64,000 nt of DNA from a virus (Duplodnaviria; Heunggongvirae; Uroviricota; Caudoviricetes). The DNA is taken from positions 37,871 through 101,870 of the IMG/VR virus record IMGVR_UViG_3300045988_154997; one strand, 5' to 3'. The translations under genes were made by a program, and so were the position numbers. The notes under the pieces were generated by a model, which ran no database searches, was not told where the DNA came from, and saw only the letters and a list, made by a program, of their open reading frames with translations. Below, one piece after another: positions 3,588-32,350 of the stretch (positions are counted from its first letter, which is position 1; each line of letters begins with the position of its first letter).

Positions 3588-3651
3588 AAGAATAGCCGCC
3601 TGTCGTGTGATACTATTTACAGAACTAAACTGGCTTTCCACAAGGTGTAAA

Positions 3652-4473
3652 ATGACTATCCTTGAAAATCCTGATGCGAATGTTGAATCTGTTTATAGTC
3701 TTCATCCAACCACGTTGTTTCATTTTACAAAAAACGAAGATGCTTTCTATAGCATATTGGCTGAGAAATATTTTAAACCATTTCTTGCTCGCGAGGAAAT
3801 AAGAGGAGTCGGGGGACGCAGGAGGTTTGCAGTACCAATGGTATCGTTTTGTGACATAAAACTATCACAAATCAGAGATCATAGCGGAAAATATGGAGAA
3901 TTCGGTCTTGGGCTAACTAAGTCTTGGGCGGAAAAGAAAGGTCTACACCCAGTTCTATATATGAATAAGAGTAGTGAAATATTTTCTAAATACAATGCCA
4001 GAATTCGACTTATTAAAAATAAGTTGGTGCCGCTTTGGAAGGCTAGAGGAAATTTAGATACCAAAAACAGAATAGAGTTTGAGAAATTGAAAGCAGAATA
4101 TTCTGATCTATATAATTTACTGCGTTATATGAAAAATTACAGAGGCAAGCTAGAGCGAAAAGATAATAAAACAATAGAGAATTATATATATGCAGACGAG
4201 AAAGAGTGGCGTTATGTGCCAGCTCCTTTTATTGGTGATTTATGGCCTAGTCTGAGTTTGGAGCGTGTTATCACTTCTGATGACAAAGCAAAAATTAGCT
4301 CAAAATTTTCAAAGTTTGGCATTGATTTTGAGTTCAATGATATAAAATATATACTTATACCTAAAGAACAACATATCCAAAAGCTAATTAACTTTCTCTC
4401 AGGTTTAGATGGATTTGAATCTTCAATTATTAGCAAAATTCTGACCATGGATAAAGTAAAGCAAGATTTTTAA
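3652..4473 (+). CDS. hypothetical Abi-like protein (N-terminal LFHFT motif)
   Basis: ORF 3607..4473; first ATG in frame at 3652 (MTILENP). N-terminal LFHFTKNEDAFYSIL recalls the HFT start of AbiGi-type proteins (from memory, unverified). AT-rich. Confidence 0.45.
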   Translation: MTILENPDANVESVYSLHPTTLFHFTKNEDAFYSILAEKYFKPFLAREEIRGVGGRRRFAVPMVSFCDIKLSQIRDHSGKYGEFGLGLTKSWAEKKGLHPVLYMNKSSEIFSKYNARIRLIKNKLVPLWKARGNLDTKNRIEFEKLKAEYSDLYNLLRYMKNYRGKLERKDNKTIENYIYADEKEWRYVPAPFIGDLWPSLSLERVITSDDKAKISSKFSKFGIDFEFNDIKYILIPKEQHIQKLINFLSGLDGFESSIISKILTMDKVKQDF

Positions 4474-4499
4474 TTTTTGGTTTAACGGGAGCCTAATTA

Positions 4500-5711
4500 G
4501 TGTCAATATTTTTAAGCGAAAAGGAAATGCAAAATTGGATAATTGACAAATTATCTGATCAAGATGGATTATATAATTCAATCATCAATATTGATAAATT
4601 AAATGAATTTAATCCGAAAAGACCCGAAGAGAAAAAAATTAAGGAGAGTTATCAGTTTTGTTTAAAGAACATAACATTGTTACATTTAATGACAGATGAT
4701 GAGAATATCTCAGCAACAAAATCTGAGATATTAAGACCTGATGTCGTTGCTTATTCAACAGAGAATGAATCCTTAGTTCTTATTGAGTTAAAAAATTTTT
4801 CAACACCAACAAGGGAAGCTGGAACTGAGCTAGTGGCATATGCTGCGGAACTAAAAAGTTACTTGTCATACTTGTCTGATGGAGATATTACCAATGTACT
4901 TATATCACCTGACTGGCCACCTTTGGTTAGACACTTTATTTTTAATATGATCGTGTGGCAGAAGAAAAACTTTCTATGTTTAGAACCTTGCTATGATTTA
5001 CAAGGTAACGTATCACTTACTCCTTTAGATATTAATAAATTAGTTATTGCGGAAGAAGCACTCAAGTTCTCATTTCGTCATCTTGGCGGGTTTCATATAT
5101 GTTTGTATGATGATGAAATGTATAATCAACCGACTTCCACTTCTCGTTTACATTCGAAATTGAATGTTATTAAAGCCAGCATGGCAAAAATGTCCTCAGA
5201 CGGTGAAAAGACTAATAGCCATGGGTTTGCTATTTTATGTAGAAATTTGAACGAGAGAACTTTAGCACCATATACGATTACTCTAGTTAATGTTTCTGCG
5301 TTTTCTTCCATAGAGCGATACTTTCATTCGCCACAAATATCCAATGCTTCTCAACTCCCTAGAATAGGACAAAAAATTTATGACATTTACACTCATTACC
5401 AACCATCAGGTTTTGGGGCATCAATGTCGAAAATTTACAATTCTGGGAGGGCATATTTAGAAAAAATTAATTGCAAGCCGCGGATCGAGGTTATAGACAC
5501 CTGGGATGTATTGCAAGTACATACACATGCGCCTTATATGGAAATGGTTCATATTGAAACGTGGGGAGTTTTTAAAGAAAAATTGATTGAAGGTCTAAAT
5601 GAATGTTATGAGGATGAATATTACACACCTGATTTTAACGATGTAGATTTTTGCATGGTGTGTATTGAATCCTTAATTGACCAGAATTATGAATTTATAA
5701 AACTTTTTTGA
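4500..5711 (+). CDS. PD-(D/E)xK nuclease-like protein (putative)
   Basis: 403 aa. Motif ILRPDVVAYSTENESLVLIELK fits the PD...(D/E)xK nuclease core. GTG start at 4500 with GGGAG 9 nt upstream; 26 nt after the previous gene. AT-rich. Confidence 0.5.
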   Translation: MSIFLSEKEMQNWIIDKLSDQDGLYNSIINIDKLNEFNPKRPEEKKIKESYQFCLKNITLLHLMTDDENISATKSEILRPDVVAYSTENESLVLIELKNFSTPTREAGTELVAYAAELKSYLSYLSDGDITNVLISPDWPPLVRHFIFNMIVWQKKNFLCLEPCYDLQGNVSLTPLDINKLVIAEEALKFSFRHLGGFHICLYDDEMYNQPTSTSRLHSKLNVIKASMAKMSSDGEKTNSHGFAILCRNLNERTLAPYTITLVNVSAFSSIERYFHSPQISNASQLPRIGQKIYDIYTHYQPSGFGASMSKIYNSGRAYLEKINCKPRIEVIDTWDVLQVHTHAPYMEMVHIETWGVFKEKLIEGLNECYEDEYYTPDFNDVDFCMVCIESLIDQNYEFIKLF

Positions 5712-7876: not shown

Positions 7877-9195
7877 TCTTTATCTCCGATTCGATCTTCG
7901 GTATCGCGTAAGCAACGCGGCCATTTCAGTCGTGGGTGGCGTAAGCTGCCATCAGGTGTTTTCTCGTGACAATGAACCTCGACAATACGACCACGGTACT
8001 TCTCTTTGTTGTTCCAGATCTCGTCCAGATATTTATGCTTAATGCCGCTCGCACGAACGATGACGCCGTTTTCAAGACGAATAACAATTTTCCCAAGCGT
8101 GTTGGCAAAACCAGAGTCCGGGTCGCCCGGCTCAAAATCGATAATTTCACCATCTTCTGAATCTTCGTCTTTTAACTTCCACCAGCTGCGGGTACGTTTA
8201 AACTCGTAAACAGAGTTCGGATCTTTGCCCATCTCCCCTTCTTCGTTATCGTCCAGGCGTTTCATGAAGCGTTCGATGAAGTCTTCGTGGCTATGGATGA
8301 TGTAGAACGGATGCAGGTGAATGTCTTGTGCGTAGCCTTCACTGCGATCGTTTTTGAACAACGCCACGAGCATAGCCAGGCGCTCTTTCAGCTTCATACC
8401 TGTCTTTGCATACTCTTTGGATTTAGCCTGTGCTCGCCATTCCGGTAGGAAGAAGTCGAAAACATGATAAATAGCGCCAATTGCCTGCACGTTCTTTTTG
8501 CGCAATGCAGATACGGACTGGTTAAATGAACCGGCTGTGCCTTCACCATCGAAGAAGATGTGTTTGTGGCCTGAAAGTTTGCCTAATTCGAGCATGGCTG
8601 GCTTTAGGTGATCGAGAGACGTGATTGGATTACCAGTACGAGAAAGGAAGTTAACCTCTTCTTCGTCAACAATAACCTCGCAAATTACTCGCAAACCATC
8701 GAGCTTAAGGCTGCCAATCATCGGCCATTTTGCTTTAGGGTTTGGCTTGAAGGGGTATTTGTCGCCTTTTTCTTTATACGGTGACGCCAGCTGCACCTCG
8801 AATTTCGGAATGGGATTTTCAAAAACCTTGTTGCATAGGCTAATCCCAACGCCAGCTTTCGGATCTTTTAAGAGGAAACGACGGAAGACGTCCTGCCCAT
8901 CGGCGCACATTGACGCCACGATAGACTCAACAGCAGCTATTGCTGCGTTCCCCGTCAGCTCGCGAGAGGCCAGCTTATTCAGTACATCAATGGCTTTTTC
9001 GTCACTTGGGACGGACTCACTAAGCGGCTCTGCCACTTTGTATTTCTTTACCCCAAAACGGATGAAAGGGTTGAGCATCAATGAAACCATGCTTTGTTCA
9101 AAGTCATCCATGTTGGCCAATGCCTCTTTTTTTGCATTGGTTCCCATAGCTTTCATTTCGTCCAGCTTATGCTTAAGTGCGATCAACTTTTTCAT
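7873..9195 (-). CDS. ATP-dependent DNA ligase
   Basis: Adenylation motif I KLDGLR (SLKLDGLRVICEV); C-terminal GSLRHPRLKWPRCLRDTEDRIGDKE typical of ATP-dependent ligase OB-domain ends. Confidence 0.8.
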   Translation of the reverse strand: MKKLIALKHKLDEMKAMGTNAKKEALANMDDFEQSMVSLMLNPFIRFGVKKYKVAEPLSESVPSDEKAIDVLNKLASRELTGNAAIAAVESIVASMCADGQDVFRRFLLKDPKAGVGISLCNKVFENPIPKFEVQLASPYKEKGDKYPFKPNPKAKWPMIGSLKLDGLRVICEVIVDEEEVNFLSRTGNPITSLDHLKPAMLELGKLSGHKHIFFDGEGTAGSFNQSVSALRKKNVQAIGAIYHVFDFFLPEWRAQAKSKEYAKTGMKLKERLAMLVALFKNDRSEGYAQDIHLHPFYIIHSHEDFIERFMKRLDDNEEGEMGKDPNSVYEFKRTRSWWKLKDEDSEDGEIIDFEPGDPDSGFANTLGKIVIRLENGVIVRASGIKHKYLDEIWNNKEKYRGRIVEVHCHEKTPDGSLRHPRLKWPRCLRDTEDRIGDKE

Positions 9196-9662
9196 TGTTG
9201 TTTTGCCTCCATATGTTGATCGATTTGCTCATGTGTTTCTTTTGTTGTTTCTTCAATCAACGCCGCATACACGTCAGTGATCGCTGTTTGTGATGTGGCG
9301 CTCTTCTTAACCATGCTATTAATCGTTACACTGTCACGTTTTCGTTTTATAGTTCTGGCTTGTTTATTCCGTTCTTCAACCTCCTTAATGAGTGCGGTCA
9401 TATCTTCGTAATACAGAGATTCTCCTTTACGAATCTCTTCAACCATCATTTTTAACGCCTTGCATTTGCCTGCTTTAATAGCGGTTGCGCACGACTGGAA
9501 AGACGTTCGAGGAAGACGGTTTTCTTTGAAGGCAAGAATGGTGTGCTGGCAAACGGAGTAGCTGCAATATGCCGACTCACCGTTTATCTTTACTTCCTCA
9601 CAACGAAGTGAATAACCGTTATTTCCTGAAATAGAAGGGATTTTTGACAAATCAGCTTTCAC
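9192..9662 (-). CDS. Cys-rich hypothetical protein
   Basis: 156 aa with clustered cysteines (YCSYSVC, SCATAIKAGKC); overlaps the ligase start by 4 nt. Confidence 0.45.
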   Translation of the reverse strand: MKADLSKIPSISGNNGYSLRCEEVKINGESAYCSYSVCQHTILAFKENRLPRTSFQSCATAIKAGKCKALKMMVEEIRKGESLYYEDMTALIKEVEERNKQARTIKRKRDSVTINSMVKKSATSQTAITDVYAALIEETTKETHEQIDQHMEAKQQ

Positions 9663-20549: not shown

Positions 20550-20789
20550 TTATGGCACTTTTCTGCCCCATCCACACAATCGCTCCCCTATCATATTGTG
20601 AAAAAGTACTTCCCTTTCAGTCTCTTCGGTCATGAGATCATCACGGCTGATGTATAGCGGTGTAGCCGCATCGCAGAAAAGCACACCAGAGGATTGAGGC
20701 TTAATCACGCAACCACTTATTGTGCAACTCATGATGAACAGTAGAAGCATCTTTGCGCCGTAACTCATCAAGTGTTTCATTTTTGACAT
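20550..20789 (-). CDS. outer-membrane spanin (Rz1-like lipoprotein), overlapping the i-spanin
   Basis: Internal start MSKMKHLMSYGAKMLLLFIMSCTISGC gives a signal peptide and lipobox; the frame overlaps the 3' part of the i-spanin gene. Confidence 0.45.
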   Translation of the reverse strand: MSKMKHLMSYGAKMLLLFIMSCTISGCVIKPQSSGVLFCDAATPLYISRDDLMTEETEREVLFHNMIGERLCGWGRKVP

Positions 20790-20952
20790 CCACTGTGCTT
20801 TGAAGTCGTTTCCTGTCTTCCTGTTTTGCCTTCTCTTCCATTGCTCGTCGCGCCGCATTTCCGCCCATCGTGTAAGCGCCGACCAGAACGAAAAGAACGG
20901 CAGCCAGCGTAATCAAAGCAACTTTTAGCTTTGTCATCAGGCTGCCTAGCAT
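20701..20952 (-). CDS. inner-membrane spanin (Rz-like)
   Basis: 83 aa; N-terminal TM segment ALITLAAVLFVLVGAY followed by charged coiled-coil; directly downstream of the endolysin. Confidence 0.5.
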   Translation of the reverse strand: MLGSLMTKLKVALITLAAVLFVLVGAYTMGGNAARRAMEEKAKQEDRKRLQSTVDVKNETLDELRRKDASTVHHELHNKWLRD

Positions 20953-20953
20953 A

Positions 20954-21673
20954 TTAGACCATCCCTTTCTGGTGTCTTCTTACCTGCGACCAGGCGATAA
21001 ATCCAGCCACAACAATAGTGGCAATACCGAAGATGATGCGTACTGTATCCCCACTAGAGATATGACCTTGTGCTTTATCCATAGCAGCGGAAACCTGCGG
21101 CATAACATCGGCCAGCTGCGCCAGACCAATACCTGCTGTAACAGTTGCGCCTGCTGTTTCTTTAGTTACAGGAACAGCCTTCACGGTTTTCACCGGCTTA
21201 ACGACGCCAGCTCGACGCAGACCTTCCTCAATAACTTCTGCCGCATACCAGGTGTTCAGCGTTTTTAGCGGACCTCGCCCATTCTCATGGCGAATGATTG
21301 CCTCAACCAAAGGTCGAAGAATGTCGTAATCATGCAGATCGATGATCATGTCTGCGGTTACACCAACGGCTTTAGACACCTCATTAATGTAGGCGTCAGT
21401 GTTGTTTTCATTCGGCGGTGCCCAACGTTCAATAACTTCACGAATGGTATCGATACTTGAGCCGTCTTTTGCGCGACGTTTGTCGTGGTAGGTAATTAGA
21501 GTCACCGCCAGCGCACGAATCCCCCAAACAGGGTCTTTAAACGTGCAAAAGCGCGGTTCGTCTGGATTCGCAACCAGACCTTGCCACGGTGATCCTTTAT
21601 CAAGATTACCGGGGTTATTATTACGAATGCCTCTCGGAGTCTTCATCCTTGATCTCCTGTTATTGCAGTCCAT
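20954..21673 (-). CDS. putative endolysin (peptidoglycan hydrolase) with C-terminal TM segment
   Basis: Position in the lysis cassette; N-terminal GIRNNNPGNL motif (recalled from phage lysins, unverified); C-terminal hydrophobic VRIIFGIATIVVAGFIAW. Confidence 0.45.
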   Translation of the reverse strand: MDCNNRRSRMKTPRGIRNNNPGNLDKGSPWQGLVANPDEPRFCTFKDPVWGIRALAVTLITYHDKRRAKDGSSIDTIREVIERWAPPNENNTDAYINEVSKAVGVTADMIIDLHDYDILRPLVEAIIRHENGRGPLKTLNTWYAAEVIEEGLRRAGVVKPVKTVKAVPVTKETAGATVTAGIGLAQLADVMPQVSAAMDKAQGHISSGDTVRIIFGIATIVVAGFIAWSQVRRHQKGMV

Positions 21674-21995
21674 TTTTTACGCCATACGCGGCTAACCCCA
21701 AAAGCAGTGCAGTAATAAAGAACGACGTTATTTTAGAAACAATGCCGCCAAAGAACCCACTGGAGATGGAATCTAACCGGTTAAGGAGTTTGTCCAGATT
21801 GGAGTGTTGAATACTATGTTGCGCCGGGGTCATATCACCAAAGTAGGTTTTCAGCTGATCATTGACCTCCTGGCCAATTTCTTCACGTAGCTCTTTACCT
21901 AATTTGCCAACAACCTCCCGAGCAACGATCGCGGCAATACGCTCAACTTGCTCTGTTGTAACGCTCGCCATCTCGTTCGACATGTTTTCCTCCAT
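21660..21995 (-). CDS. holin-like membrane protein (putative)
   Basis: 111 aa with C-terminal TM segment SKITSFFITALLLGLAAYGV; directly upstream of and overlapping the endolysin. Confidence 0.35.
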   Translation of the reverse strand: MEENMSNEMASVTTEQVERIAAIVAREVVGKLGKELREEIGQEVNDQLKTYFGDMTPAQHSIQHSNLDKLLNRLDSISSGFFGGIVSKITSFFITALLLGLAAYGVKNGLQ

Positions 21996-22051: not shown

Positions 22052-22069
22052 GTGTACTTACCTATCATT
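22052..22069. promoter_or_regulatory. dispersed motif copy GTGTACTTACCTATCATT
   Basis: Upstream (~60 nt) of the holin-like gene start. Confidence 0.4.
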
Positions 22070-22298
22070 CAGCATTGCAACGAACTGATGAGAAAGCACC
22101 TACTCCTACCCATCGCCAGTTATAGATGCTACCCGCTTTGTATAAGGTATAGTCGTTCACTTTTTTAACAGCATATATGGGTATGACTGTCTCCTGTCCA
22201 CCAATGATAGCCTCACCGTAACATATAGGTGTCGGCAATTTCTGGCAGCCAGTAAGAGAGAGAACAACAGCTATTGTTAGAAATAATCTTTTCATCAT
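22065..22298 (-). CDS. small lipoprotein, candidate superinfection-exclusion (Cor/Llp-like role)
   Basis: 77 aa, lipobox MMKRLFLTIAVVLSLTGC; sits between the tail-fibre genes and the lysis genes. Confidence 0.5.
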   Translation of the reverse strand: MMKRLFLTIAVVLSLTGCQKLPTPICYGEAIIGGQETVIPIYAVKKVNDYTLYKAGSIYNWRWVGVGAFSSVRCNAE

Positions 22299-22305
22299 TT
22301 ACTCA

Positions 22306-22914
22306 TCAGTTATACAGATTTCTATTTATTACCGGTACTCTGCCATTTACGCTAAAACTATGGCCGCCATTAAGTTGGTTTACGAATATCGAGCTAACAG
22401 TATTTCCATATGCCGCATATCCATAAACCATTGTCATGGCCCCGCCCGGTACTGGAACCGCGAACACATTTGCATATGTTGGGATTATCGCTGGCGGGTA
22501 ATCAAAAACATGCCCTCCAGAACTGTTCCACTCCGTATTATTAAGAAAGGTAAATGAAAGTGGGATATTTGCCGTATTATAGATCTCCTCTCCTCGCGCA
22601 TTGAAAAAACTCATGCCCCAAGTTTCTTTTTTGGCTATACCTTTCGAAAATACGTATATCGTGGCACTAGAATCGCTACCCTGACCTCCGAAACTGTAAA
22701 TCACCTGGTTGTTACGCACTATTCTGTTGGCTATTAATGAAACAGCTTTCGAATAGGCAACAAAAATCATCGGTGAACGATCTGGAGATATTTGGGTGTT
22801 AAACTCTGTCCCGCCAGACAAAGAAACAACCTGCTTTCTCTGAAAAACGATAGGAGACAAAGAAGGAGACATCCAGACCTTCCCGTCAGATCGATATATC
22901 TTGCTTCCGTACAT
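22306..22914 (-). CDS. tail fibre-associated protein (hypothetical)
   Basis: 202 aa, Gly/Ser/Asn-rich; coupled (TAATG overlap) to the upstream 84-aa gene, downstream of the tail fibre. Confidence 0.4.
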   Translation of the reverse strand: MYGSKIYRSDGKVWMSPSLSPIVFQRKQVVSLSGGTEFNTQISPDRSPMIFVAYSKAVSLIANRIVRNNQVIYSFGGQGSDSSATIYVFSKGIAKKETWGMSFFNARGEEIYNTANIPLSFTFLNNTEWNSSGGHVFDYPPAIIPTYANVFAVPVPGGAMTMVYGYAAYGNTVSSIFVNQLNGGHSFSVNGRVPVINRNLYN

Positions 22915-23168
22915 TATTTTTGAAAAACCAATATGTTTAAATTGCCACTAGCTCCAGACCATGAAATGGTATTTCCAGAAACCGTAAGACTTGTGTATTT
23001 CCCATTGGTTACGTCCATTATGTAATAGTCGATTCCCAATCCCGCCTCAACCTCATATGTTCTACTTCCTGAACCAGAGGGAGTAAAATAATCGAGGTAA
23101 TAAACAGGGGCCAACGCATCGACCATCTCCTGTCTTGATGGCGACCAAACCTGTGCACCATAGCTCAT
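22914..23168 (-). CDS. hypothetical protein (tail fibre region)
   Basis: 84 aa ORF directly downstream of the tail fibre gene. Confidence 0.4.
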   Translation of the reverse strand: MSYGAQVWSPSRQEMVDALAPVYYLDYFTPSGSGSRTYEVEAGLGIDYYIMDVTNGKYTSLTVSGNTISWSGASGNLNILVFQK

Positions 23169-23228
23169 AAATATATCCTTATACTTTTAAGCAGGGGCTG
23201 GTTTAGTTCCAGCCCCGATTGAAGTTGT

Positions 23229-26200
23229 TTATTCTTTAGGTGAATTTAACTTCGTTTCAAGCTCCTCAACCCTTTTGGTCAATTGCTGAATATGATGAAT
23301 GAGTGGTACAACCAAACGCTCATACATCACTCCTTCAGCGACCATACCATTTGAGGAAATATCTCCTGGAGAATCATTATTTGTTGGTTCACGCCAATGG
23401 ACATATTGCGGGGCAATCTCACCAACCTCTTCAGCAATAAGGCCGTAATACCCCCAATCCTTTCGGTCACCTCGACAAATTGAACGATACCAAACAGGTC
23501 TTAATGACAAAAGTTCATCAGCATATCGATCTTGTAATGTTTCAATATCCTTTTTATAGCGCCTTGAAGATGTTGAACGCCAAACTGTATTGATACCTGG
23601 GTTTGGATCAATGTACATATTGGCACCGCTAGTAGTTGTGCCAATATCCCATATAGCAAACCCTCCACTACCGCCTGATTTGACAACCAGTGTTTCAGCA
23701 ATAATATCCAGGTTGCCACTATAGCCTGTCAGTGATGATCTGCTTGCATAGGAACTTAGAAGGTTTGTTACCTCTGTTTTCGTATAAGCATTAAGGTTAG
23801 CCGCAGTCAAAGTAATATCGGCAGAGCCATCAAACGCCACACCAGCAATTTTCCTTGCTGTCTGCAATTTTGTGGCTGTTGCGGCATTACCAGTAGTATT
23901 CTGATTACCGGTTGTATTCACACCAGGGATTGAATCCTTAGCGGTATATACCTGCGCCCACGCTGACCATGCCGCATCAGTGGTATCTCTTCTGGAGCGA
24001 ATGAAAACCGGCGCATGTGCACCGCTCGTACCACTCCAGCCAATAAGCAACTCGCCCTCACCAGCAGCACTCGCACCTTTCATGTGCAATACGTTGCCAT
24101 ACGTGGTCGGGTAGCTATTGTTGTACGCCTCGTACATTTGAATGCCAGCAGTACCTTGAGTAGAACCGCTTAAAGCCGTAACTCGACCACGAGAAACCAA
24201 TGTATTAATATTGATATCACCTGAACCATCAAACTTAACACCATTGATGTTTCTCGCTGTTTGCAACTTCGTAGCTGTTGAAGCATTGCCATTCAAGCTA
24301 CCATTTACGCCACCAGTAACATTTAGTCCATTACCAATAGACACAACACCGCTGCTATTATTAATTATAATCGGTCGCAAACTGTTCCATGAACCTAACG
24401 TATCTCCTGATGCTGTTAGCATGAAATATGTGCTGCCGCCGTCATTACGGATAAAGAACCCGTAGTTACCGTAAGCAATGCGGAAACCATTTGCATATTT
24501 TGAAACGATCTCACCAGAAGACGTTAACCCTCCAGATAATGTGCCACCTGAAAGCGGTAATGCTCCTACATCAGAAGCTGTTGGTTTGTTTCTAGTGTTA
24601 TAAGAACGACGCCAGCCTGGTGCATAATCACTTCCATTGTACACATAAATAAATTCCGCATTGTTAACACCACCATGACCCGATGTTGTTGTCGTTGTAA
24701 CACGAATAGTGTAGTGGCTTGTTGCCTTATTACTAAACACCTCAATCACGGAACCAGATAGATCGATCCTACCGCAACCAGTGTCGTCTATATAATTATT
24801 GTTGGCGTAAGTCCATGAGCACCGTGCGATCCAATGTTTGTTTGTAAATGCCCCCTGATTATTTAGCCAAGTTATAAATTGAGCAGTCGTAAATGCCGTT
24901 CCGTTACCACTATTTAACCATCCAGCGGCAGCGGTTGGCGCGTTTATATCAGCCGGCTGAGGCATAAATCCAGTCGTGTAAACCTGCTCCCAACCACTTT
25001 CAAAACCATAGCCATCTCTTGAGGAACGGTAGAACAGACCACCATTTTTATAGTGAGCTTTAATTTGAAGCGTACGGCAACTACCTACACCGGTATAAAA
25101 GTTGGCAAGAATATAACTGTCGCCTGTTCTAGTTACATTGTAAGCACCAGATTCAGCATTCCACGGCACGCCACCATCAGCATCCGCATATGACCCTGTT
25201 GCCCTTCTTGCGAAAGCGGCAACATGCGCAGCGGTTAAAGTGATATCAGTAGAACCATCAAATGGAACACCGGATATTTTTCTTGCAGTCTGAAGTTTTG
25301 TAGCAGTTGCAGCATTACCAGTGGTGTTCTGATTACCCGTAGTGTTTACACCTGGAAGGTTGATATTTGCAGAACCGTCGAAACCAACTCCACCGATAGA
25401 TCTTGCCGTCTGCAATTTCGTTGCTGTACTTGCATTACCATTTAATGTTCCGGTGATCCCACCAGTAACAGACAACGGACCTGAAACTGTTCCTCCGGTT
25501 GTTGGCAGTGCTCCAATATCTAACGGCGTCGGTTTCTGATGTGTGCTATACATCGTATAAACAACACCATCGGTAACGCTGGAAGGCTTACTCGCTGAAT
25601 ATGTTGGCGATGTATAAATAGAAACTGACGCATTTGCAGTACAATCCCAATGGATATTTACACTCGTCGCATAATTGCCAATTTCAACGTAAATATCATA
25701 TGTATCGCCGGATGTGTTGATCCAGGCGAAATTCGTTAATCCGACAGCTGTACGCTTCCACAAAGCACCTGTAATCCCTTTGGGGTTTCCATTGCCTGCT
25801 CGTAGAACCAGTTCTGAAATGCCTGCCTGATGTGGGGAGCCGACGTTGTAACCAGCGCCACCAATCAATGCGATGTAAACGATGGAACTCGCTTGTGGCA
25901 TTGTAACAGTAGCCAGTTTGAACCACCCGGCCCCGCCAGAGAAAGACATCGTTATTGAATTTAAAGTACCAATATCTTTCGGCGTTAATGTGATATCCGC
26001 AGTCAGTGCTTTCCCGTTAATTTTTCGGTTAGATGGCACCCTGCTGTTCGCATTGTCATTGACTACTTTAACTGCTTTTGGCGTTGCGGCCAGCGATTCA
26101 CTGGTGCTGTCGACAGCACTGCTAAGTTTCACAACACCTTTAGTTGTAAGGCTTGCGTCTTCCATCGCAACTGCACCGGCAATCTCTTCAGCACGATCAG

Positions 26201-27527
26201 CAGCAGCTTCCGCACGGGTCGCAGCGGATTCAGCAGCAGTTTTGCTCTGAGATGCTGCCGTCGCACTGCCTGCCGCCTCTGTTGCTTTCGTGGATGCCGT
26301 CGTGGCGCTGCCCTTCGCTGCTGACGCCTGTCTGGTCGCCTCATCTTTTGAAGCAGACGCAGATGATGCCGATGACGCCGCCGAACTGGCGGACGATGCG
26401 GCAGCCGTTTTTGAGGATTCTGCGCTGGTTTCCGACGCTTTCGCGTTCGTTTCGGATGTCTTCGCTGCGGAAGCAGACCTCGCTGCTGCGCTGGCCTGTT
26501 CAGTGGCTTCGCCAGCCTTCGTTGTGGCTGTTGAAGCAGACGATGCGGCACTTTCTGCCGATTTTCCGGCGGCGGTGGCACTGGCTGAGGCCTGCCCGGC
26601 ACTTGTTGACGCGGCACTGGCAGACGACGCAGCCGCTGTTTTTGAGCCTGCCGCAGCCGAGGCGCTCTGTCCCGCTGCCGTTTCAGAAGACCTGGCGTTC
26701 GTCTCGGACGTTTTTGCCGCCTTCGCGGAATTTCCTGCCGCCGTTGCCGAGGAAGCGGCATTACTGGCGCTCGAGGCTGCGCTCGTTTCTGATGATTTCG
26801 CTGCCTCTTTTGAGGCCGCCGCATCCCGGGCTGAGGTGGCAGCTTCTGACGCCTTCGTGGTCGCGGTGGATGCAGAAGTGGCTGCAGATTTTTGTGACGC
26901 TGCAGCATTCGTTTCAGACGTTTTCGCGGCACCGGCACTGGTGGCCGCCGCGCTTTTTGAGGACTCTGCAGCGGATGCACTTTGAGACGCTTGAGAGGCT
27001 TTTTCTCCAGCGGTATTGGCGCTTTCTGCTGCTGCGGCAGCACTGGCCGCCGCCTCACGAGCTTTGTCGCCAGCAGCATCAATCGCGTCAGTGTTATTTT
27101 TATACCACTCAACGTTTTCGTTGTGCTCGTTGACGATCTGCATTAGCGGCTTAACGGTCACTTCTGTACCGTCTTCACGCTCGATTGTCACCTCATCCAG
27201 AGCAGTCAACCAACTGCGCATGGACTTGGAATCAGCCGACATACGCGACATTAGTGCTGTAAAGCGCGCGCTAAACTGTGTTAAGTCGCCTTCATAGGTC
27301 GTAATGATTCGGCACGGAACTTCAGACTGAGTTTCGCCGGTATAAGGTTCTGAGAGAACAATGTTCGTATCACTGGTTACGCGCTTGATCTCATACAGCT
27401 TATTGTCGGGGCCAATGACGATCATCCCCGGCAACACACCATTAGCTGTTACGTTCCAGGCTGTCCCTGCCCCAACCAGAGTATTGCTGCCCTGTGTAAA
27501 TGTGATAGTACCTTCCCTGTACCACAT
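23229..27527 (-). CDS. long tail fibre protein with C-terminal intramolecular chaperone (S74-like) domain
   Basis: 1432 aa: N-terminal Ala/Ser-rich low-complexity region, four copies of a GNASTATKLQTARxIxGVxFDGSxDI fibre repeat, C-terminal RYKKDIE...GLIAEEV autoproteolytic chaperone-like domain. Confidence 0.8.
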   Translation of the reverse strand: MWYREGTITFTQGSNTLVGAGTAWNVTANGVLPGMIVIGPDNKLYEIKRVTSDTNIVLSEPYTGETQSEVPCRIITTYEGDLTQFSARFTALMSRMSADSKSMRSWLTALDEVTIEREDGTEVTVKPLMQIVNEHNENVEWYKNNTDAIDAAGDKAREAAASAAAAAESANTAGEKASQASQSASAAESSKSAAATSAGAAKTSETNAAASQKSAATSASTATTKASEAATSARDAAASKEAAKSSETSAASSASNAASSATAAGNSAKAAKTSETNARSSETAAGQSASAAAGSKTAAASSASAASTSAGQASASATAAGKSAESAASSASTATTKAGEATEQASAAARSASAAKTSETNAKASETSAESSKTAAASSASSAASSASSASASKDEATRQASAAKGSATTASTKATEAAGSATAASQSKTAAESAATRAEAAADRAEEIAGAVAMEDASLTTKGVVKLSSAVDSTSESLAATPKAVKVVNDNANSRVPSNRKINGKALTADITLTPKDIGTLNSITMSFSGGAGWFKLATVTMPQASSIVYIALIGGAGYNVGSPHQAGISELVLRAGNGNPKGITGALWKRTAVGLTNFAWINTSGDTYDIYVEIGNYATSVNIHWDCTANASVSIYTSPTYSASKPSSVTDGVVYTMYSTHQKPTPLDIGALPTTGGTVSGPLSVTGGITGTLNGNASTATKLQTARSIGGVGFDGSANINLPGVNTTGNQNTTGNAATATKLQTARKISGVPFDGSTDITLTAAHVAAFARRATGSYADADGGVPWNAESGAYNVTRTGDSYILANFYTGVGSCRTLQIKAHYKNGGLFYRSSRDGYGFESGWEQVYTTGFMPQPADINAPTAAAGWLNSGNGTAFTTAQFITWLNNQGAFTNKHWIARCSWTYANNNYIDDTGCGRIDLSGSVIEVFSNKATSHYTIRVTTTTTSGHGGVNNAEFIYVYNGSDYAPGWRRSYNTRNKPTASDVGALPLSGGTLSGGLTSSGEIVSKYANGFRIAYGNYGFFIRNDGGSTYFMLTASGDTLGSWNSLRPIIINNSSGVVSIGNGLNVTGGVNGSLNGNASTATKLQTARNINGVKFDGSGDININTLVSRGRVTALSGSTQGTAGIQMYEAYNNSYPTTYGNVLHMKGASAAGEGELLIGWSGTSGAHAPVFIRSRRDTTDAAWSAWAQVYTAKDSIPGVNTTGNQNTTGNAATATKLQTARKIAGVAFDGSADITLTAANLNAYTKTEVTNLLSSYASRSSLTGYSGNLDIIAETLVVKSGGSGGFAIWDIGTTTSGANMYIDPNPGINTVWRSTSSRRYKKDIETLQDRYADELLSLRPVWYRSICRGDRKDWGYYGLIAEEVGEIAPQYVHWREPTNNDSPGDISSNGMVAEGVMYERLVVPLIHHIQQLTKRVEELETKLNSPKE
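26130..27110. repeat. low-complexity GC-rich coding repeat (Ala/Ser/Thr-rich part of the tail fibre)
   Basis: Repetitive GCx codon runs; produces three long artefactual antisense ORFs in the six-frame track. Confidence 0.7.
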
Positions 27528-27571
27528 GTTGAATATGCTCCTTGATTTGGTGGGCTATCCTTGCCCACCAT

Positions 27572-27619: not shown

Positions 27620-30600
27620 TTACAGAAGGCCAATTCTTACTCGTAGGACGTTGTTATCGTCATAAACGTCAATCCGCTGACCATTTATGACCAGTCGCCC
27701 ATTACCCCCGCTATTACCGTTGATCTCAAGCGTTCCATTTTTGCCGAACCGCCATCCAGATCTACCGCTAACAAAATTGGTAGATTGCAGATCGCCTACT
27801 TTTGCATTGGTGATTGTGCCATCCTTGATATACGCACCATTCATATAGGCGATACTGTTTTCGATAACAAATGGCGTGGTGATCTTCCCGTTAACAGAGT
27901 TGACCAAACCAAACCTGTCAGCCTGCACCAAAAACTGAGAAAGGCCAGTGGTGTCGATACCAAGCGCAATACCAGCAACATACTTCTGCCCTCCGCTCGT
28001 TGAAGTTTCCATTTTCAACGTCCACGCGGTTGACACTTTTTTGTTGGTATCAGCAATAGCTGTTGCCTGCTGTTGAATTGTCGCGGTATTTCCATCCACC
28101 TCTGCTTTCAGAGTATCGATTCGCCCACTCAGAGCATTATCTGCCTGCGTTCTCGCTGTCGTTTCAGTTGTTACCGCCGCGGAAATGTTGGCTGCCGTTT
28201 GAGACTCTAAGTTTGTGATTTGAGTCGCCAATGCAGCATCTTGCTCTGTACGCGTTTTCGTTTCGGTTGCTACAGCCGCTTTAATATCCTCTTTGTATTG
28301 AGAGGTCAGCTTGGTGATCTGAGACGACAACGCCGAGTCAGCATCAGTTCGAGCCTGCGTTTCAACTGCAACGGCCGCACTAATATCTTTCGCTGTCTGT
28401 GCTTTTAAACTTGAAACCTCTTTTGTTAAAGCGGTATCACCATCAGCACGAGCCGTTGTTTCTCTGGCAAGAGATGCCTCGAGATCATTAGCTTTTGCTG
28501 TAAGAGACGAAATCTGAGTGGACAATGCACTATCGGCATCAGTCCTTGCCTTTGTCTCTACAGCAACCGCTGCGGCAATATCAGTTCCGGTTTGTGCTCG
28601 CAGGCTGTTAATTTCTCGTGAGAGCGCCTGGTCAGCACTTGCTCTGGCCTCCTGCTCCTGAGTGATGGCAGCGGATATATCACCGTCAACCTTTGACTGA
28701 AGCTGGTTTATTTGTTTGGCTAACGCAGAGTCCCCGCTTGCTCGGGCCTCCTGCTCACTACGTATTGCAGCAGAAATATCATCATCAACCTTTGCCTGAA
28801 GTTGGGTGATCTGGCTTGCCAGAGCCGAATCTTCCGTTGCTCGGGCTTCTTGCTCTTCCTTAATAGCTGCGACGATATCGTTGCTTACTTTCGACTCAAG
28901 CTGAGTGATCTGTGTCGTCAGAGCTTCATCGGCAGATGTGCGAGCCTCCTGCTCTGTACTAATCGCCGCGCTGATATCTCCTTCAAACTTAGATTGCAGC
29001 TGAGTGACACGCTTTGCCAACGCTTCATCGCCATCGGCACGAGCGGTGGACTCTTCCAGAATACTGGCCTTAATGTCTTCGCCAATTTCTACGCGAATTT
29101 CCTCAACCTTCGTGGCCATTGCAGACATATCATCAGCAAAGGTTTTCTGTGTTGTTGCGATCTTCGCGTTATTGACCATCTGCTTGTGCTGGTCTTCATC
29201 TTGACGAAGAGCCAGGTCAATATTTGTTTTGGCTAACGCCTCAATGTTCGTAGTCAGTTCTGCACTGGCACGATCGACCTCTGCAACCGTCTTTTTCATT
29301 TCTTCAACGGCAGCGGAGCTTTCCTCTACCGTTGACTGCAACACTTCCAGTTGTTTAGCGTTTGCAGCATCGCCTTCAACACGAGCCTCGCTTTCCTTAG
29401 CAATAAGAGCCGCCGCTTCATCTCTTGCAGCCTTTATTGCCTCGACTGTATTAGCGAGAGCTTTATCGTGTTCAGATACGGTGTTTTCGATTTCAACAAT
29501 TGCAGCATCAGTAGCATCAATTTTTTCAAACGCTTCATTGACCTTGTCGATCGTTGCCGAAACCTCACCTTTAAGCTCGGTTTGTGCGTTCTCCAAAGCA
29601 TCGCTACGCTCGTTGAATTTTATTTCAAAACCCGCGAGGTTATCGCTGAACTGCTTATCTAATTCAGCTATATCTTCCTTAACGTCGTTTACCGACCCCT
29701 CCAAAGATTCGACGCTCTGGTTGATATGCTCATTTAACTCGTCAACTGCTTCTTGAGAGGCTTTGCTGTTGATGTCCTCAAGCAGAGCCTGACCAAGCTC
29801 GGAAGATGTAATTTTGCCAGCCAGGAACGACAGTACATCGCGAGTTGTCGCCTCTGTACCCAAGTTTGAGTTCGGAGGGCTTAACATACCTCGCTTGTTC
29901 GATGCTCGAACCCAGTAATACCACGTTTCGCTATCCCCAAGACCAGCATGTGTAAAGGTGGTGCTTGCAGACTCTGCGATCAGTTTCGCCGTATCCAGAT
30001 TGTTGGTCTGGGATGCGTAAACATTAATGTGATCAAGGTCTACCGAATCTGGATTAACCCAATTCAGTATCACATTACGATAGTCTCCAACGGCCGTTAA
30101 TGACGTTGGTGCATCCGGCGGTGTCATTGTGCCCAGCACCTGATAAACGGTACTGATAATTTCTGTTTTTTTACCGTTGAATGAAACCGCATACAGTTGG
30201 AAGTCGTAGCGTCCATTCTCCGCGACATTAACGATTTCGTATTGCTCTTCGGTTACACGCGCCGATTGCCAGTTCGATACATTGTTTTCATCAGAACGTC
30301 GCCAACTGATCCAATACTCTGGAGATTTCCCTTCCCATGTTGCAGTCAGTTTTACTGACAGGTTGCCCGGGCTTGAGAGGTAAGTCCCTTCAGTGATTTG
30401 CAAATTAGACGGCTTGGAGTAAGTCGGGTCCAATACCGTCGTATTCTGCGGGATAAGCGTTGCACCATTGTCGATCGCCTCATATTTAGACGGATTGTTT
30501 TCAACAGCGGTGATGTCAAAGCTACCCGACGTTTCCCCCTGAGCGATGTTAACGATGCGAACGCGCATAGGTTCGAGATCTGGTTCTGTAATTGTCCAGA

Positions 30601-32350
30601 CACCGTTCAAAACAGGCGTTTCCGCTGACGACAGAGCTTTTGAAAACGTAACCTTTGTTATGTTTTCGCCAGTTTCAAGAACATCGCGCTCAACGATTTT
30701 GCCTTCCTGATTCAATATCCGAATAAAGCTGCCGCTTTTAGCTAACGACACAGGCGCATCGAGAGTGATGCTGTTTTTGGTAAACTCCACAATTCGACCG
30801 GAGTTACGTTTACCTGCACGATATTTGTTCTGAATCAGAACGGTTTCACCGGGCATCAGAAATGAGGCGTCTAAGCCGGCAGTAAATGTAATTACATCCG
30901 ACTCCATTCTGGCGGTATACAAAAGCCACAAACCAACTCGGTGAGCCTGGCCTCGGCTTGTACATCCAAATGCTACGACTTCTGTTTTACGCTCACCATA
31001 ACGGCGCATTGCGTCCTGATCTTCAACGTACTCGATATTTTGCTTATAACCGTCCTCCTTGTTGTTGTAGGTTACGAGCGCAACGGATGGGCGATCTTTA
31101 CGCGCAGAACCTTTATAGGTAAACAGTCCATCTTTGACGTTGGAGTTGGTAAACATCATTACCGGATCTGATGGGCTATCCTGCATGATGTTAACCATGC
31201 CACCAGCCCAAAACACCATGCCGCGGAATGCACCGGCAATATCCTGAATTAATCGGTATGCGTCTTGTCGACTGGTGATCTGCGTATTGATTGCAAAGCG
31301 TTTCTCTTTACCCCCAAAGCCATCATCGACCTCTTCGTCACAATATCGACCAATCTGGTAGAGCTGGCCGAGGTCAATCATGGATTCCGACACAAATTGC
31401 CCAAGACCATACCGAGTATTGGTAAGCAAATCGTAGAGAATCCACGCAGGGTTTGAAGAAGACAACAGCTTAAAAGTACCGTCCCATACGCCGACATAAG
31501 TATTGGTGTATTCGTTGTAGTTTGACGGTACTCGGATTTTGATACCGCGCACCAAATACGAACGGGAAGGCATTGTGCTACCAAACTGCTCTGAATTGAC
31601 CTTCAAGCCAACAAGAGCAGAGTTAGGGTAGTTCATTGGCGTGTCGACAATCTCACCGATGGAATCAACCCATGTGTCGTTGTAGAGGTACTGGCTACTG
31701 TTATCATCTGTAAGACGAATCACCCTAACCTTGTATGCACGACCAGGCTTAGGTAGTTTCAGCTCATAGCTACGGTAATACACGCCTGTTTTCTTTGCCG
31801 TTAGCGTGATATCAACGCTTTTCTCACCTTCTGCCACCACATCAGAAAATGTTGCGTCTCCGTTGGCGATCTGGAATTTGTACTTCACCGTAGTGCCATT
31901 TGTATCGCCAGAGCTTTTATCAACGCTACGTAAAGAGGGGAATTTCATGATGACACGAACGCGATCAGCTTCATCGTTATCGATTGAAACCGTAACGTCG
32001 TGTGTTTTTTTAAGCTGAATATTTACGGACTTAGGCGTTTCAACAAAATCAAAACCAGCCATTGGCGTCTGGTCTTGTGAGCCGTCACGAAAATCCCATG
32101 TAATACCGCTGAAGTTGGAAGAGCCATCTTCATTCAAGATCGGTAAATCGTCGATGAAGATCGACTTTGCGCCATTTACCAGGCCACCGATAACCCCCTC
32201 GCCAAGAAGGTCGAGGATGGCTGCCATAGCACGAGAATTGACAGTATCATCAGCTTCAACCGGGGTACGGCTGGAGCTTTTACTTTTCTTGCCACCAGCA
32301 CCGGCAATAAGAAGCGGTAATTTTTTCTTCTTGAACTGTTCCATGTCCAA
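27620..32350 (-). CDS. J: central tail fibre / tip attachment protein J with inserted tandem-repeat region
   Basis: N-terminal half aligns by eye to lambda gpJ (YPNSALVGLKVNSEQFGS, AFGCTSRGQAHRVGLWLL, KYVAGIALGIDTTGLSQFLV); contains ~10 tandem ~33-aa repeats. Confidence 0.85.
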   Translation of the reverse strand: MDMEQFKKKKLPLLIAGAGGKKSKSSSRTPVEADDTVNSRAMAAILDLLGEGVIGGLVNGAKSIFIDDLPILNEDGSSNFSGITWDFRDGSQDQTPMAGFDFVETPKSVNIQLKKTHDVTVSIDNDEADRVRVIMKFPSLRSVDKSSGDTNGTTVKYKFQIANGDATFSDVVAEGEKSVDITLTAKKTGVYYRSYELKLPKPGRAYKVRVIRLTDDNSSQYLYNDTWVDSIGEIVDTPMNYPNSALVGLKVNSEQFGSTMPSRSYLVRGIKIRVPSNYNEYTNTYVGVWDGTFKLLSSSNPAWILYDLLTNTRYGLGQFVSESMIDLGQLYQIGRYCDEEVDDGFGGKEKRFAINTQITSRQDAYRLIQDIAGAFRGMVFWAGGMVNIMQDSPSDPVMMFTNSNVKDGLFTYKGSARKDRPSVALVTYNNKEDGYKQNIEYVEDQDAMRRYGERKTEVVAFGCTSRGQAHRVGLWLLYTARMESDVITFTAGLDASFLMPGETVLIQNKYRAGKRNSGRIVEFTKNSITLDAPVSLAKSGSFIRILNQEGKIVERDVLETGENITKVTFSKALSSAETPVLNGVWTITEPDLEPMRVRIVNIAQGETSGSFDITAVENNPSKYEAIDNGATLIPQNTTVLDPTYSKPSNLQITEGTYLSSPGNLSVKLTATWEGKSPEYWISWRRSDENNVSNWQSARVTEEQYEIVNVAENGRYDFQLYAVSFNGKKTEIISTVYQVLGTMTPPDAPTSLTAVGDYRNVILNWVNPDSVDLDHINVYASQTNNLDTAKLIAESASTTFTHAGLGDSETWYYWVRASNKRGMLSPPNSNLGTEATTRDVLSFLAGKITSSELGQALLEDINSKASQEAVDELNEHINQSVESLEGSVNDVKEDIAELDKQFSDNLAGFEIKFNERSDALENAQTELKGEVSATIDKVNEAFEKIDATDAAIVEIENTVSEHDKALANTVEAIKAARDEAAALIAKESEARVEGDAANAKQLEVLQSTVEESSAAVEEMKKTVAEVDRASAELTTNIEALAKTNIDLALRQDEDQHKQMVNNAKIATTQKTFADDMSAMATKVEEIRVEIGEDIKASILEESTARADGDEALAKRVTQLQSKFEGDISAAISTEQEARTSADEALTTQITQLESKVSNDIVAAIKEEQEARATEDSALASQITQLQAKVDDDISAAIRSEQEARASGDSALAKQINQLQSKVDGDISAAITQEQEARASADQALSREINSLRAQTGTDIAAAVAVETKARTDADSALSTQISSLTAKANDLEASLARETTARADGDTALTKEVSSLKAQTAKDISAAVAVETQARTDADSALSSQITKLTSQYKEDIKAAVATETKTRTEQDAALATQITNLESQTAANISAAVTTETTARTQADNALSGRIDTLKAEVDGNTATIQQQATAIADTNKKVSTAWTLKMETSTSGGQKYVAGIALGIDTTGLSQFLVQADRFGLVNSVNGKITTPFVIENSIAYMNGAYIKDGTITNAKVGDLQSTNFVSGRSGWRFGKNGTLEINGNSGGNGRLVINGQRIDVYDDNNVLRVRIGLL
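28060..29010. repeat. tandem ~99-bp repeats inside the J gene (encode the 33-aa DISAAIxxEQEARxxAD repeats)
   Basis: Near-identical segments recur with 99-bp spacing (e.g. GCTCGGGCCTCCTGCTC at ~28737 and ~28836). Confidence 0.7.

Follow-up and report, generated by a model that had tools for sequence, protein, structure and literature searches.

A mosaic tail fibre with a C-terminal S74 chaperone domain, probably the side fibre of an SSU5-like phage-plasmid of Escherichia coli

The window analysed here is a stretch of 64,000 nucleotides (nt) from the Caudoviricetes record IMGVR_UViG_3300045988_154997 (positions 37,871 to 101,870). On its minus strand it encodes a large protein that is very probably a side (lateral) tail fibre, followed by two small open reading frames (ORFs) and a lipoprotein gene. 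The fibre gene is one uninterrupted ORF whose product of 1432 amino acids (aa) matches known fibre domains, in agreement with the original prediction of a composite tail fibre at this position. From the whole gene and then from the N- to the C-terminus of the protein, the features are:

23229-27527, minus strand: complete gene for the probable side (lateral) tail fibre, 1432 codons plus stop, 147.4-kDa precursor
27078-27527, minus strand: N-terminal anchor domain, aa 1-150, specific to the SSU5 type, with a presumed role in docking to the tail tip
26163-27077, minus strand: heptad-repeat rod rich in Ala, Ser and Thr, aa 151-455, 44 uninterrupted heptads of the form xAxxSAx
26031-26153, minus strand: single 'Phage tail fibre repeat' motif (PF03406), aa 459-499, containing LSSAVDSTSESLAATPKAVK
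25509-25964, minus strand: globular domain of the shaft, aa 522-673, with relatives in T-even gp37-type and Felix O1-like fibres
25362-25439, minus strand: repeat module 1, aa 697-722, GNASTATKLQTARSIGGVGFDGSANI, from the motif search and DNA repeat family D2
25242-25319, minus strand: repeat module 2, aa 737-762, GNAATATKLQTARKISGVPFDGSTDI, from the motif and the DNA repeat
24570-25217, minus strand: two knob domains, aa 771-986, related to the fibre proteins S and S' of phages Mu and D108
24363-24662, minus strand: Gp34_trimer domain, aa 956-1055, a trimerisation domain of the T4 gp34 / Mu gpS type
24213-24290, minus strand: repeat module 3, aa 1080-1105, GNASTATKLQTARNINGVKFDGSGDI, from the motif and the DNA repeat
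23943-24203, minus strand: knob domain between modules 3 and 4, aa 1109-1195, similar to Vibrio phage fibres
23814-23891, minus strand: repeat module 4, aa 1213-1238, GNAATATKLQTARKIAGVAFDGSADI, from the motif and the DNA repeat
23571-23792, minus strand: distal tip, aa 1246-1319, last part of the predicted mature fibre
23232-23570, minus strand: Peptidase_S74 intramolecular chaperone, aa 1320-1432, 13.2 kDa, with a predicted scissile bond between T1319 and S1320

Over its full length, the fibre gene has 99.9% identity to genes named 'phage tail fiber protein' on circular ~112-kb plasmids of E. coli. On one of these, pEc2-51408 (112,587 bp, circular), the gene differs from the window copy by 4 nt and 1 aa, and the ORF is intact. 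The plasmid neighbours are annotated as tape measure, L, K/C40 peptidase, I and J (TipJ family) proteins, followed by the fibre, two hypothetical proteins, cor and lysis genes, and a neighbouring AAA-family ATPase carries a ParA annotation in Escherichia phage Cyrano. Phage relatives of the fibre are Salmonella phage SSU5, Escherichia phage CMS-2020a and Cyrano, the last of which is the phage-plasmid pLF82 of E. coli LF82 (PMC9928086). The near-identity to plasmids, the gene neighbours and the kinship with SSU5, CMS-2020a and Cyrano therefore mark the window as part of an SSU5-like phage-plasmid. At least 80% of the fibre gene is present in 48 of 5426 complete E. coli genomes, and some part of it in 4142. 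The protein matches PHROG 3299 at 2609 bits, plus many tail-fibre PHROGs, and its gene lies directly downstream of the gene for the J-type central fibre. We conclude that the ORF very likely encodes the side tail fibre of a temperate SSU5-like siphovirus that is kept as a ~112-kb plasmid in E. coli, a mosaic protein that ends in an S74 chaperone. The fibre is an ordinary one and belongs to a well-known class of phage fibre, which had been read correctly from the sequence. Near-identical copies are already listed in RefSeq as tail fibre proteins, and fragments are named 'chaperone of endosialidase'.

The C-terminal domain had been assigned to the S74 type on the strength of two motifs, RYKKDIE (at aa 1323) and GLIAEEV (at aa 1362), and the suggested hidden Markov model search supports this assignment. 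Peptidase_S74 (PF13884) matches aa 1320-1376 with 27 bits when the whole protein is scanned (cut-off 22, E 5.5e-6) and with 30.6 bits when the C-terminal fragment is scanned (E 4e-7). S1320, S1321, K1325 and the YGLIAEE core are invariant in a 31-sequence alignment that reaches down to 27% identity, and S1320 and K1325 align to positions 1 and 6 of the PF13884 profile. A profile of this alignment matches S16 gp37 (6f45_A, E 5.5e-8), an L-shaped tail fibre (8hqz_d, E 1e-7), the MyRF ICA domain (7dc3, E 0.002) and another tail fibre, 8jov. The AlphaFold model has a predicted local distance difference test (pLDDT) score above 90 over aa 1325-1432, with a 23-residue helix at the end. A Foldseek search with the chaperone model returned 7dc3 (E 1.7e-5, probability 1.0), 3gud and 3gw6 as the only matches below E = 1. 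These solved domains are just 11-22% identical in sequence. Close database relatives bear PF13884 and the name 'chaperone of endosialidase'. With its 113 residues the domain ends a protein that also has Gp34_trimer and other fibre domains, and we infer a trimeric state. It combines the attributes of an S74/CIMCD domain, namely a profile score above threshold, a serine with a lysine at +5, the chaperone fold and a position at the extreme C-terminus.

In the side fibre pb1 of phage T5, the T1263-S1264 bond is cut by S1264 activated by K1269, and the S1264A variant stays uncleaved (PMC4690869). The window fibre has the same arrangement, T1319-S1320 with K1325 at +5, and cleavage is therefore predicted between T1319 and S1320. 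By this analogy, the precursor would give rise to a 134.2-kDa mature fibre and the 13.2-kDa chaperone. Only cleaved T5 pb1 competes with infection (PMC4690869). Because of the analogy with T5 pb1 (PMC4690869), aa 1246-1319 are presumed to be the receptor-contacting end of the fibre after departure of the chaperone.

The N-terminal region is presumed to dock the fibre onto the tail tip (aa 1-150). The first 515 nt of the fibre gene have 78% DNA identity to the SSU5 fibre gene, and this anchor is also common to the Cyrano fibre. A resemblance to the N-terminal part of the solved F2-pyocin side fibre 25ve_A covers residues 2-107 (E 4e-4). Scans gave no Pfam match beyond noise in aa 1-476, the anchor included.

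The anchor is followed by the Ala/Ser/Thr-rich tract of about 300 aa that had been described as low-complexity. Its length and composition stand: Ala, Ser and Thr make up 70-78% of each 50-aa window over aa 151-450, against 18-36% in aa 1-150 and 14-42% from aa 451 on. The description as low-complexity does not, as the tract consists of 44 heptads. The heptad register runs without a stutter over 305 residues. Ala occupies position 1 in 43 of 44 heptads, and of 43 heptads 33 have Ser at position 4 and 30 have Ala at position 5. Autocorrelation peaks at every multiple of 7 (lag-7 z = 10.8 against shuffles), and the Fourier spectrum of Ala peaks at 3.5 residues. The stutter-free register of 44 heptads and the lag-7 score thus argue against plain low complexity. 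The tract is probably a coiled-coil rod with a core of small residues, which would extend over ~45 nm at 0.148 nm per residue. At the DNA level, nt 525-1478 of the gene have ~90% identity to the stfR gene in the Rac prophage of K-12 and to numerous stf genes of prophages.

Three long ORFs (231-327 aa) in other frames or on the opposite strand overlap the tract within 26129-27133 on both strands. Their translations are rich in Arg, Pro and Gln or in Ala, Asp and Phe. Rather than genes, these ORFs are almost certainly by-products of the GCN/TCN codon repeat, which contains few stops. The G+C content reaches 0.535 in the same interval.

The rod is followed by the single PF03406 motif (67.6 bits, E 7e-19), which a fragment scan detected and a full-length Pfam scan missed. 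The motif region (aa 451-502) aligns to Mu gpS residues 105-156 in 8ju3 and 5yvq. In tblastn searches, the globular domain that follows has 36-47% identity to long-tail-fibre distal subunits and Felix O1-like tail fibres, and aa 678-724 have 62-66% identity to T-even long-tail-fibre segments. The two Mu-like knobs match 8ju3_A in a phmmer search of the PDB (E 6e-64; aa 771-868 and 860-986), and this region has 49% identity to D108 S'. The Gp34_trimer domain is detected by PF21446 (103 bits, E 1.8e-29), and its region matches the T4 gp34 structures 4uxe and 5nxf (E ~5e-21) and Mu gpS (5yvq). The Mu gpS/S'-like and T4 gp34-like shaft domains are absent from the original prediction. The last knob, aa 1109-1195, is 57.5% identical to its counterparts in the tail fibres of the Vibrio phages River4 and Dax.

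Four short repeat modules separate the globular domains of the fibre. The pattern GNA[AS]TATKLQTAR.I.GV.FDGS..I has exactly four matches (aa 697-722, 737-762, 1080-1105 and 1213-1238), far beyond chance, and the corresponding DNA copies share 72-79% identity across 78 nt, so the count of four copies made from the sequence alone is accurate. Their expected identity with the Pfam 'phage fibre repeat' does not hold up in the model search. PF03406 (Phage_fiber_2) matches only the different motif at aa 459-499, and in the fragments that span aa 1010-1432 the scan detected Gp34_trimer and S74 only. The modules are covered by none of the Pfam or NCBIfam models in library and fragment scans, and an NCBIfam scan returned no match for the fibre, the fibre C-terminus or the two small downstream ORFs. 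The unit bounded by modules 3 and 4 (nt 3238-3674 of the gene) is also present in another E. coli plasmid.

The fibre is a mosaic. It joins an SSU5-type anchor, lambdoid-Stf heptads, the PF03406 motif, globular domains of T-even, Felix O1-like, Mu, P2-like and Vibrio phage type, a short tip and the S74 chaperone. The points at which homology to other fibres begins and ends were tallied from phage hits and from a 60-record sample spread across a ranking of 4435 E. coli records, so that the 60 tallied ends comprise 59 from the sample and one from the phage search. These breakpoints cluster and are not scattered. Internal homology starts fall at aa 174-182, the junction of anchor and rod, in 52 of 57 cases. 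Homology ends at aa 487-493, right behind LAATPKAVK of the PF03406 motif, in 25 of the 60 cases, and at aa 843, the end of a Mu-like knob, in 13. Homology to phi458 and some prophages ends within module 2 (aa 757) and that to CMS-2020a within module 3 (aa 1091), while one plasmid match starts precisely at aa 1080. A further end lies at aa 1225 in module 4, and homology to Cyrano ends soon after, at ~aa 1260. Conserved fibre motifs have long been viewed as recombination joints for the swapping of distal modules. As an interpretation of the clustering, the four modules and the PF03406 motif may serve as joints for homologous recombination through which tips and knobs are swapped between phages.

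How the fibre works can be proposed from the families of its domains. Three chains would assemble from the C-terminus, with the chaperone domains trimerising first and templating the intertwined tip and shaft. In a correct trimer, S1320, activated by K1325, would cut the T1319-S1320 bond in each chain, and the 13-kDa chaperone would depart, leaving the 134-kDa mature fibre with its receptor-binding tip exposed. As a coiled-coil rod of ~45 nm, the heptad tract would hold the beta-structured distal half off the tail. The fibre may then attach the phage reversibly, as a first step, to a surface glycan or an outer-membrane protein, with irreversible binding left to the J tip. The resemblance of the N-terminus to the F2-pyocin side fibre supports a side-fibre role, for which Gifsy-1 Stf and Ur-lambda Stf (PMC12312913) and T5 pb1 (PMC4690869) provide functional precedents. 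Enterobacteria commonly harbour SSU5-like phage-plasmids, which can bring resistance genes with them (PMC9600943) and whose host range is poorly understood. The domain map, with its anchor, rod, swappable knobs and tip, self-removing chaperone and predicted cleavage site, offers handles for host-range prediction and fibre engineering.

Among characterised fibres, T5 pb1 is similar in being a long lateral siphovirus fibre with a beta-structured distal part and an S74 chaperone cut at a Thr-Ser bond by Ser and Lys(+5) (PMC4690869). An Ala/Ser/Glu-rich N-terminal stretch is also visible in the alignment with 8hqz_d, an L-shaped fibre related to T5 pb1. The anchors of the window fibre and T5 pb1 differ, and the shaft of the window fibre, with its modules of Mu, T4, Felix O1 and Stf type, is different and much more mosaic. 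The pre-cleavage tip comprises ~75 aa in the window fibre, whereas T5 has a ~290-aa bullet domain, and the chaperone has 113 aa compared with 133 aa in T5. T5 binds polymannose O-antigen, and PDB entries 4UW7 and 4UW8 represent its L-shaped tail fibre.

The Stf and StfR fibres of lambdoid phages share the rod and PF03406 motif (aa ~175-493, ~90% DNA-identical to K-12 stfR), the gene position downstream of J and the expected role in primary adsorption (PMC12312913). The anchor of the window fibre, in contrast, is of the SSU5 type and not the 'prophage tail fiber N-terminal domain', and lambdoid DNA homology begins only at aa 175-182. The window has no Tfa-type gene downstream (no tail-fibre-assembly match in Pfam and no NCBIfam match in the downstream ORFs) and has an S74 end instead. 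Lacking both the Stf-type N-terminal domain and a downstream Tfa, the protein is thus an Stf-like chimera and not an Stf orthologue.

The chaperones of the K1F endosialidase endoNF (3GW6), the GA-1 appendage (3GUD) and the MyRF ICA domain (7DC3) share the Pfam family, the Ser/Lys signature and the fold. The endosialidase chaperone sits on an enzymatic tailspike, whereas the window domain sits on a fibre tip. Fibres S and S' of Mu and D108 (5YVQ, 8JU3) and T4 gp34 (4UXE, 5NXF) align to aa 451-502, 771-986 and 965-1080 (E 6e-64 to 4e-20). They are, however, myovirus fibres, and their domains are ordered differently here and lie in the shaft and not at the tip (the 8ju3 construct is an S/S' fusion). 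The Mu fibre needs a separate chaperone, gpU.

SSU5_021 is the counterpart in SSU5, with which the window fibre shares the element family, gene position, anchor, Gp34_trimer and C-terminal Peptidase_S74, and in both elements the pair of small ORFs and Cor lie downstream, in SSU5 at a greater remove. SSU5_021 differs in its length of 1260 aa and in most of its shaft, which is dissimilar at the DNA level. In SSU5 the fibre gene is followed by a gp38-like adhesin gene that is lacking in the window; SSU5_021 and SSU5_022 (1385-5703 of the SSU5 stretch) form an S74 fibre gene and a Gp38_N adhesin gene arranged as in S16 gp37/gp38. The Cyrano fibre has no detectable S74 domain. The SSU5-like family has at least three fibre endings.

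The closest phage relatives of the tip-plus-chaperone unit are found in T1-like Tempevirinae, whose S74 or 'lateral tail fiber chaperone' genes (bas06_0035 of KarlJaspers, orkinos_35) encode proteins with 45-48% identity to aa ~1225-1431 in tblastn searches and 58-63% identity over the chaperone alone. In these phages, tip and chaperone form a free-standing gene of ~170-231 aa that ends a multi-gene lateral-fibre locus, whereas they are fused in frame to the fibre in the window. The genes lie at 1869-2375 (orkinos_35) and 8674-9351 (bas06_0035) of their stretches. The separate and fused states look like a gene fission/fusion difference between phage groups.

Several points weigh against this picture of the fibre. 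The Pfam score of the S74 domain is modest (27 bits compared with a cut-off of 22), and the T5 helper residues Asp1239 and Arg1250, the latter acting from a neighbouring chain, could not be mapped onto the window fibre. Cleavage, trimerisation and incorporation into the virion are predicted by analogy with homologues. AlphaFold models the pre-cleavage tip as a monomer at low pLDDT, as would be expected if the tip forms an intertwined trimer. The coiled-coil interpretation is based solely on sequence periodicity. The breakpoint tally comes from 60 of 4435 records plus phage hits, and its largest non-motif cluster, at aa 843, lies at a domain end and not in a repeat module. Some RefSeq records flag an N-terminal truncation or a pseudogene, although the ORF is intact.

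Taken at face value, such flags would make the fibre gene a decayed remnant that gives rise to no functional fibre. The RefSeq record of pTLYA-2 calls the gene a pseudogene with a 'missing N-terminus', PGAP flags it as partial there, and the annotated coding sequence in pEc2-51408 begins 128 codons late. Yet the 1432 codons are uninterrupted in the window and in pEc2-51408, and the long start has a strong Shine-Dalgarno site (AAGGAG, 9 nt 5' of the ATG at 27527), which the internal ATG 128 codons downstream, the start in one RefSeq record, does not have. Homologues of the first 170 codons open the fibre genes of SSU5 and Cyrano and occur at the N-terminus of a solved side fibre, and the retention of at least 80% of the gene in 48 complete genomes also speaks for a working gene. 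A remnant is therefore extremely unlikely, and the flags look like pipeline artefacts, perhaps from protein models without the SSU5-type anchor. The extreme composition of the Ala/Ser/Thr tract could alternatively indicate a disordered low-complexity spacer in place of a structured rod, and composition filters in HMMER seem to suppress full-length hits, PF03406 being seen only in the fragment scan. Disorder gives no reason for a perfect register with Ala at heptad position 1 in 43 of 44 cases and a lag-7 z of 10.8, the tract is ~90% DNA-identical across thousands of E. coli prophage stf genes, and a class of fibres that combine coiled-coil N-terminal parts with S74 ends has been described. A spacer thus seems quite improbable. 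The S74-like domain, in turn, might be a vestige that aids folding or does nothing and stays uncleaved, so that the full-length chain would be present in the virion; a score only 5 bits above the cut-off and T5-type auxiliary residues that were not identified would agree with this. Against it, the nucleophilic Ser and the Lys(+5) are invariant in 31 relatives down to 27% identity, and the domain is modelled at a pLDDT above 90 and matches chaperone folds only. In T5 the uncleaved chaperone blocks receptor competition (PMC4690869), and retention would therefore be selected against. We consider a vestigial domain very unlikely and retain the reading of a working side fibre with a self-removing chaperone.

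Downstream of the fibre gene lie three further genes:

22914-23168, minus strand: 84-aa ORF, first of a conserved pair, PHROG 557
22306-22914, minus strand: 202-aa ORF, second of the pair, PHROG 425
22065-22298, minus strand: Cor superinfection-exclusion lipoprotein, 77 aa, lipobox LTGC, PHROG 1119 (E 2e-30), named cor in RefSeq

The pair had been noted as two ORFs at 22306-23168 that may act in receptor binding or fibre assembly. The ORFs exist as described, and the stop of the 84-aa ORF overlaps the start of the 202-aa ORF by 1 nt (TAATG). An assembly role finds no support, as the downstream ORFs have no Tfa, gp38 or other tail-fibre-assembly match in Pfam; an S74 fibre brings its own chaperone, so the pair is not expected to supply fibre assembly factors. 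Neither protein has a signal peptide or a hydrophobic segment of transmembrane grade, so the sequence gives no backing to 'outer membrane protein' and 'membrane associated protein' as database names. RefSeq annotates the 202-aa ORF with 188 aa, and cor lacks an annotation in pTLYA-2. The inconsistently annotated equivalents of the fibre gene lie in stretches of NZ_CP104116.1 (9001-13299) and NZ_CP137164.1 (1501-5799). The RefSeq problems at this locus thus comprise the truncated fibre start, the pseudogene call, the shortened 202-aa ORF and the unsupported membrane names of the pair.

The two ORFs are conserved together in SSU5 (69-75% identity), T1-like Tempevirinae (26-36%) and Stx phages (24-33%). 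A word-indexed search with the 202-aa protein found close relatives only, and the others came within reach through a profile built from SSU5, orkinos and Stx seed sequences. In this seed alignment, residues M1-Y2-G3 of the 202-aa protein are invariant, and G3 is invariant in a 25-sequence alignment. The 202-aa protein is homologous to bas06_0024 (E 1e-12), which lies beside the J-like gene of KarlJaspers/Bas06, and the 84-aa protein to bas06_0025 (E 2e-10). Bas06 is listed as BtuB-targeting (bioRxiv 10.64898/2026.04.02.716166). In the T1-like phages orkinos and Bas06, the pair and a lipoprotein gene adjoin the 3' end of gpJ, where a hypervariable 'RBP locus' (RBP, receptor-binding protein) correlates with the choice of terminal receptor (PMC8594841; bioRxiv 10.64898/2026.04.02.716166). 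The window resembles such a locus in its homology to the Bas06 genes and in its adjacent exclusion lipoprotein. In an Stx1 phage, the gene upstream of the pair has the J-tip domain PF09327, and the Stx pair lies before lom. About 100 Stx phage records contain the pair, and none of them is among the 102 records with a relative of the window chaperone. J and the pair are separated by the side-fibre gene both in the window and in SSU5. The lipobox LTGC of the window Cor also occurs in the T1-like lipoproteins bas06_0026 and orkinos_30. As the match is limited to the signal peptide, homology of Cor to these lipoproteins is not claimed.

AlphaFold models the 202-aa protein as all-beta (pLDDT 84.5). 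The best PDB match of the model is 9rpt_C, the Oekolampad RBP bound to LptDE (probability 1.0, E 0.02, template modelling scores 0.46/0.38). A sequence-profile search of the 202-aa family against the PDB returned nothing meaningful, so the link to the Oekolampad RBP is one of fold. In the Oekolampad system, the RBP gene lies next to an exclusion lipoprotein gene (bioRxiv 10.1101/2025.07.07.663478), and the window, with the pair and the Cor lipoprotein, has a matching composition. Given this model, the 202-aa protein is a candidate receptor-binding protein of the central tail tip. Because the pair is homologous to genes beside the Bas06 J-like gene, any receptor-binding role is more likely to be exercised at the central tip than in the fibre, and the 84-aa ORF is probably not part of the fibre.

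We tentatively suggest that the 84-aa ORF, the 202-aa ORF and Cor form a portable cassette for receptor binding, accessory function and exclusion, homologous to the gpJ-adjacent cassette of BtuB-targeting T1-like phages. We hold this with somewhat less than even confidence, and it is the only lead at this locus with some discovery value. If true, SSU5-like phage-plasmids and likewise short-tailed Stx phages would choose their terminal receptor via a detachable T1-type RBP on a J-type tip, and the cassette, seemingly absent from Cyrano, would be gained and lost independently of the J gene. Speaking against a J-tip RBP are the weak fold match to the Oekolampad RBP, the side-fibre gene that separates J from the pair in the window, and the co-occurrence of the pair with S74-ended fibres within the SSU5-like family. 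The Cyrano annotation lists neither the pair nor S74. A divergent J tip was predicted for this phage if the pair tracks with the J tip, but the prediction was not borne out, as its J is 99-100% identical to the window J. This identity makes an essential role of the pair as J-tip RBP less credible. The comparison is not decisive, since the passages on Cyrano in PMC9928086 report no propagation host. The two ORFs might instead be accessory parts of the side fibre, either an assembly factor or a tip adhesin of the kind that gp38 is for gp37 of S16. They come straight after the fibre gene, SSU5 and the window have both the pair and an S74 fibre while the Cyrano annotation has neither, and T1-like phages with the pair also have the homologous S74 tip gene. 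This is unlikely, however, as SSU5 has a separate gp38-like adhesin between fibre and pair, the pair in the Stx records follows a PF09327 gene and does not coincide with chaperone relatives, and the T1-like pair lies beside gpJ, ~3 kb from the lateral-fibre locus. The lack of a Tfa or gp38 match in Pfam and a hairpin between the fibre stop and the pair argue in the same direction. The likelihood left over by the receptor-binding cassette and the fibre accessory, which is a considerable share, goes to expression in the lysogen or another role of the pair.

Two G+C-rich hairpins flank the fibre gene on the minus strand. One lies just 3' of the stop (23194-23216, GGGGCTGG-N7-CCAGCCCC) and the other just 5' of the Shine-Dalgarno site (27549-27569, GGTGGGC-N7-GCCCACC). 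Neither has a clear T-run, and the terminator scan made no call on either; promoter and terminator scans were at or below shuffle expectation. The hairpins may be RNA-stability or attenuation elements.

The J-type central fibre upstream (27620-32350, minus strand) is unusually long with 1576 aa and carries Phage-tail_3, FNIII-A_GpJ and Phage_Tail_Tip domains. An Ala/Glu/Ser/Thr-rich repetitive stretch of roughly aa 850-1400 precedes Phage_Tail_Tip, and a 99-nt tandem repeat is detectable in the gene, especially at 28638-28855. This J is 99-100% identical to that of Cyrano, and its high similarity to the SSU5 J is confined to the last ~180 residues. Directly downstream of cor (20701-21995, minus strand) is a lysis cassette with a 111-aa holin-like ORF, a 239-aa protein and an 83-aa Rz-like ORF. 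The 239-aa protein is annotated as 'endolysin' in Cyrano and SSU5, whereas RefSeq names it 'membrane protein'.

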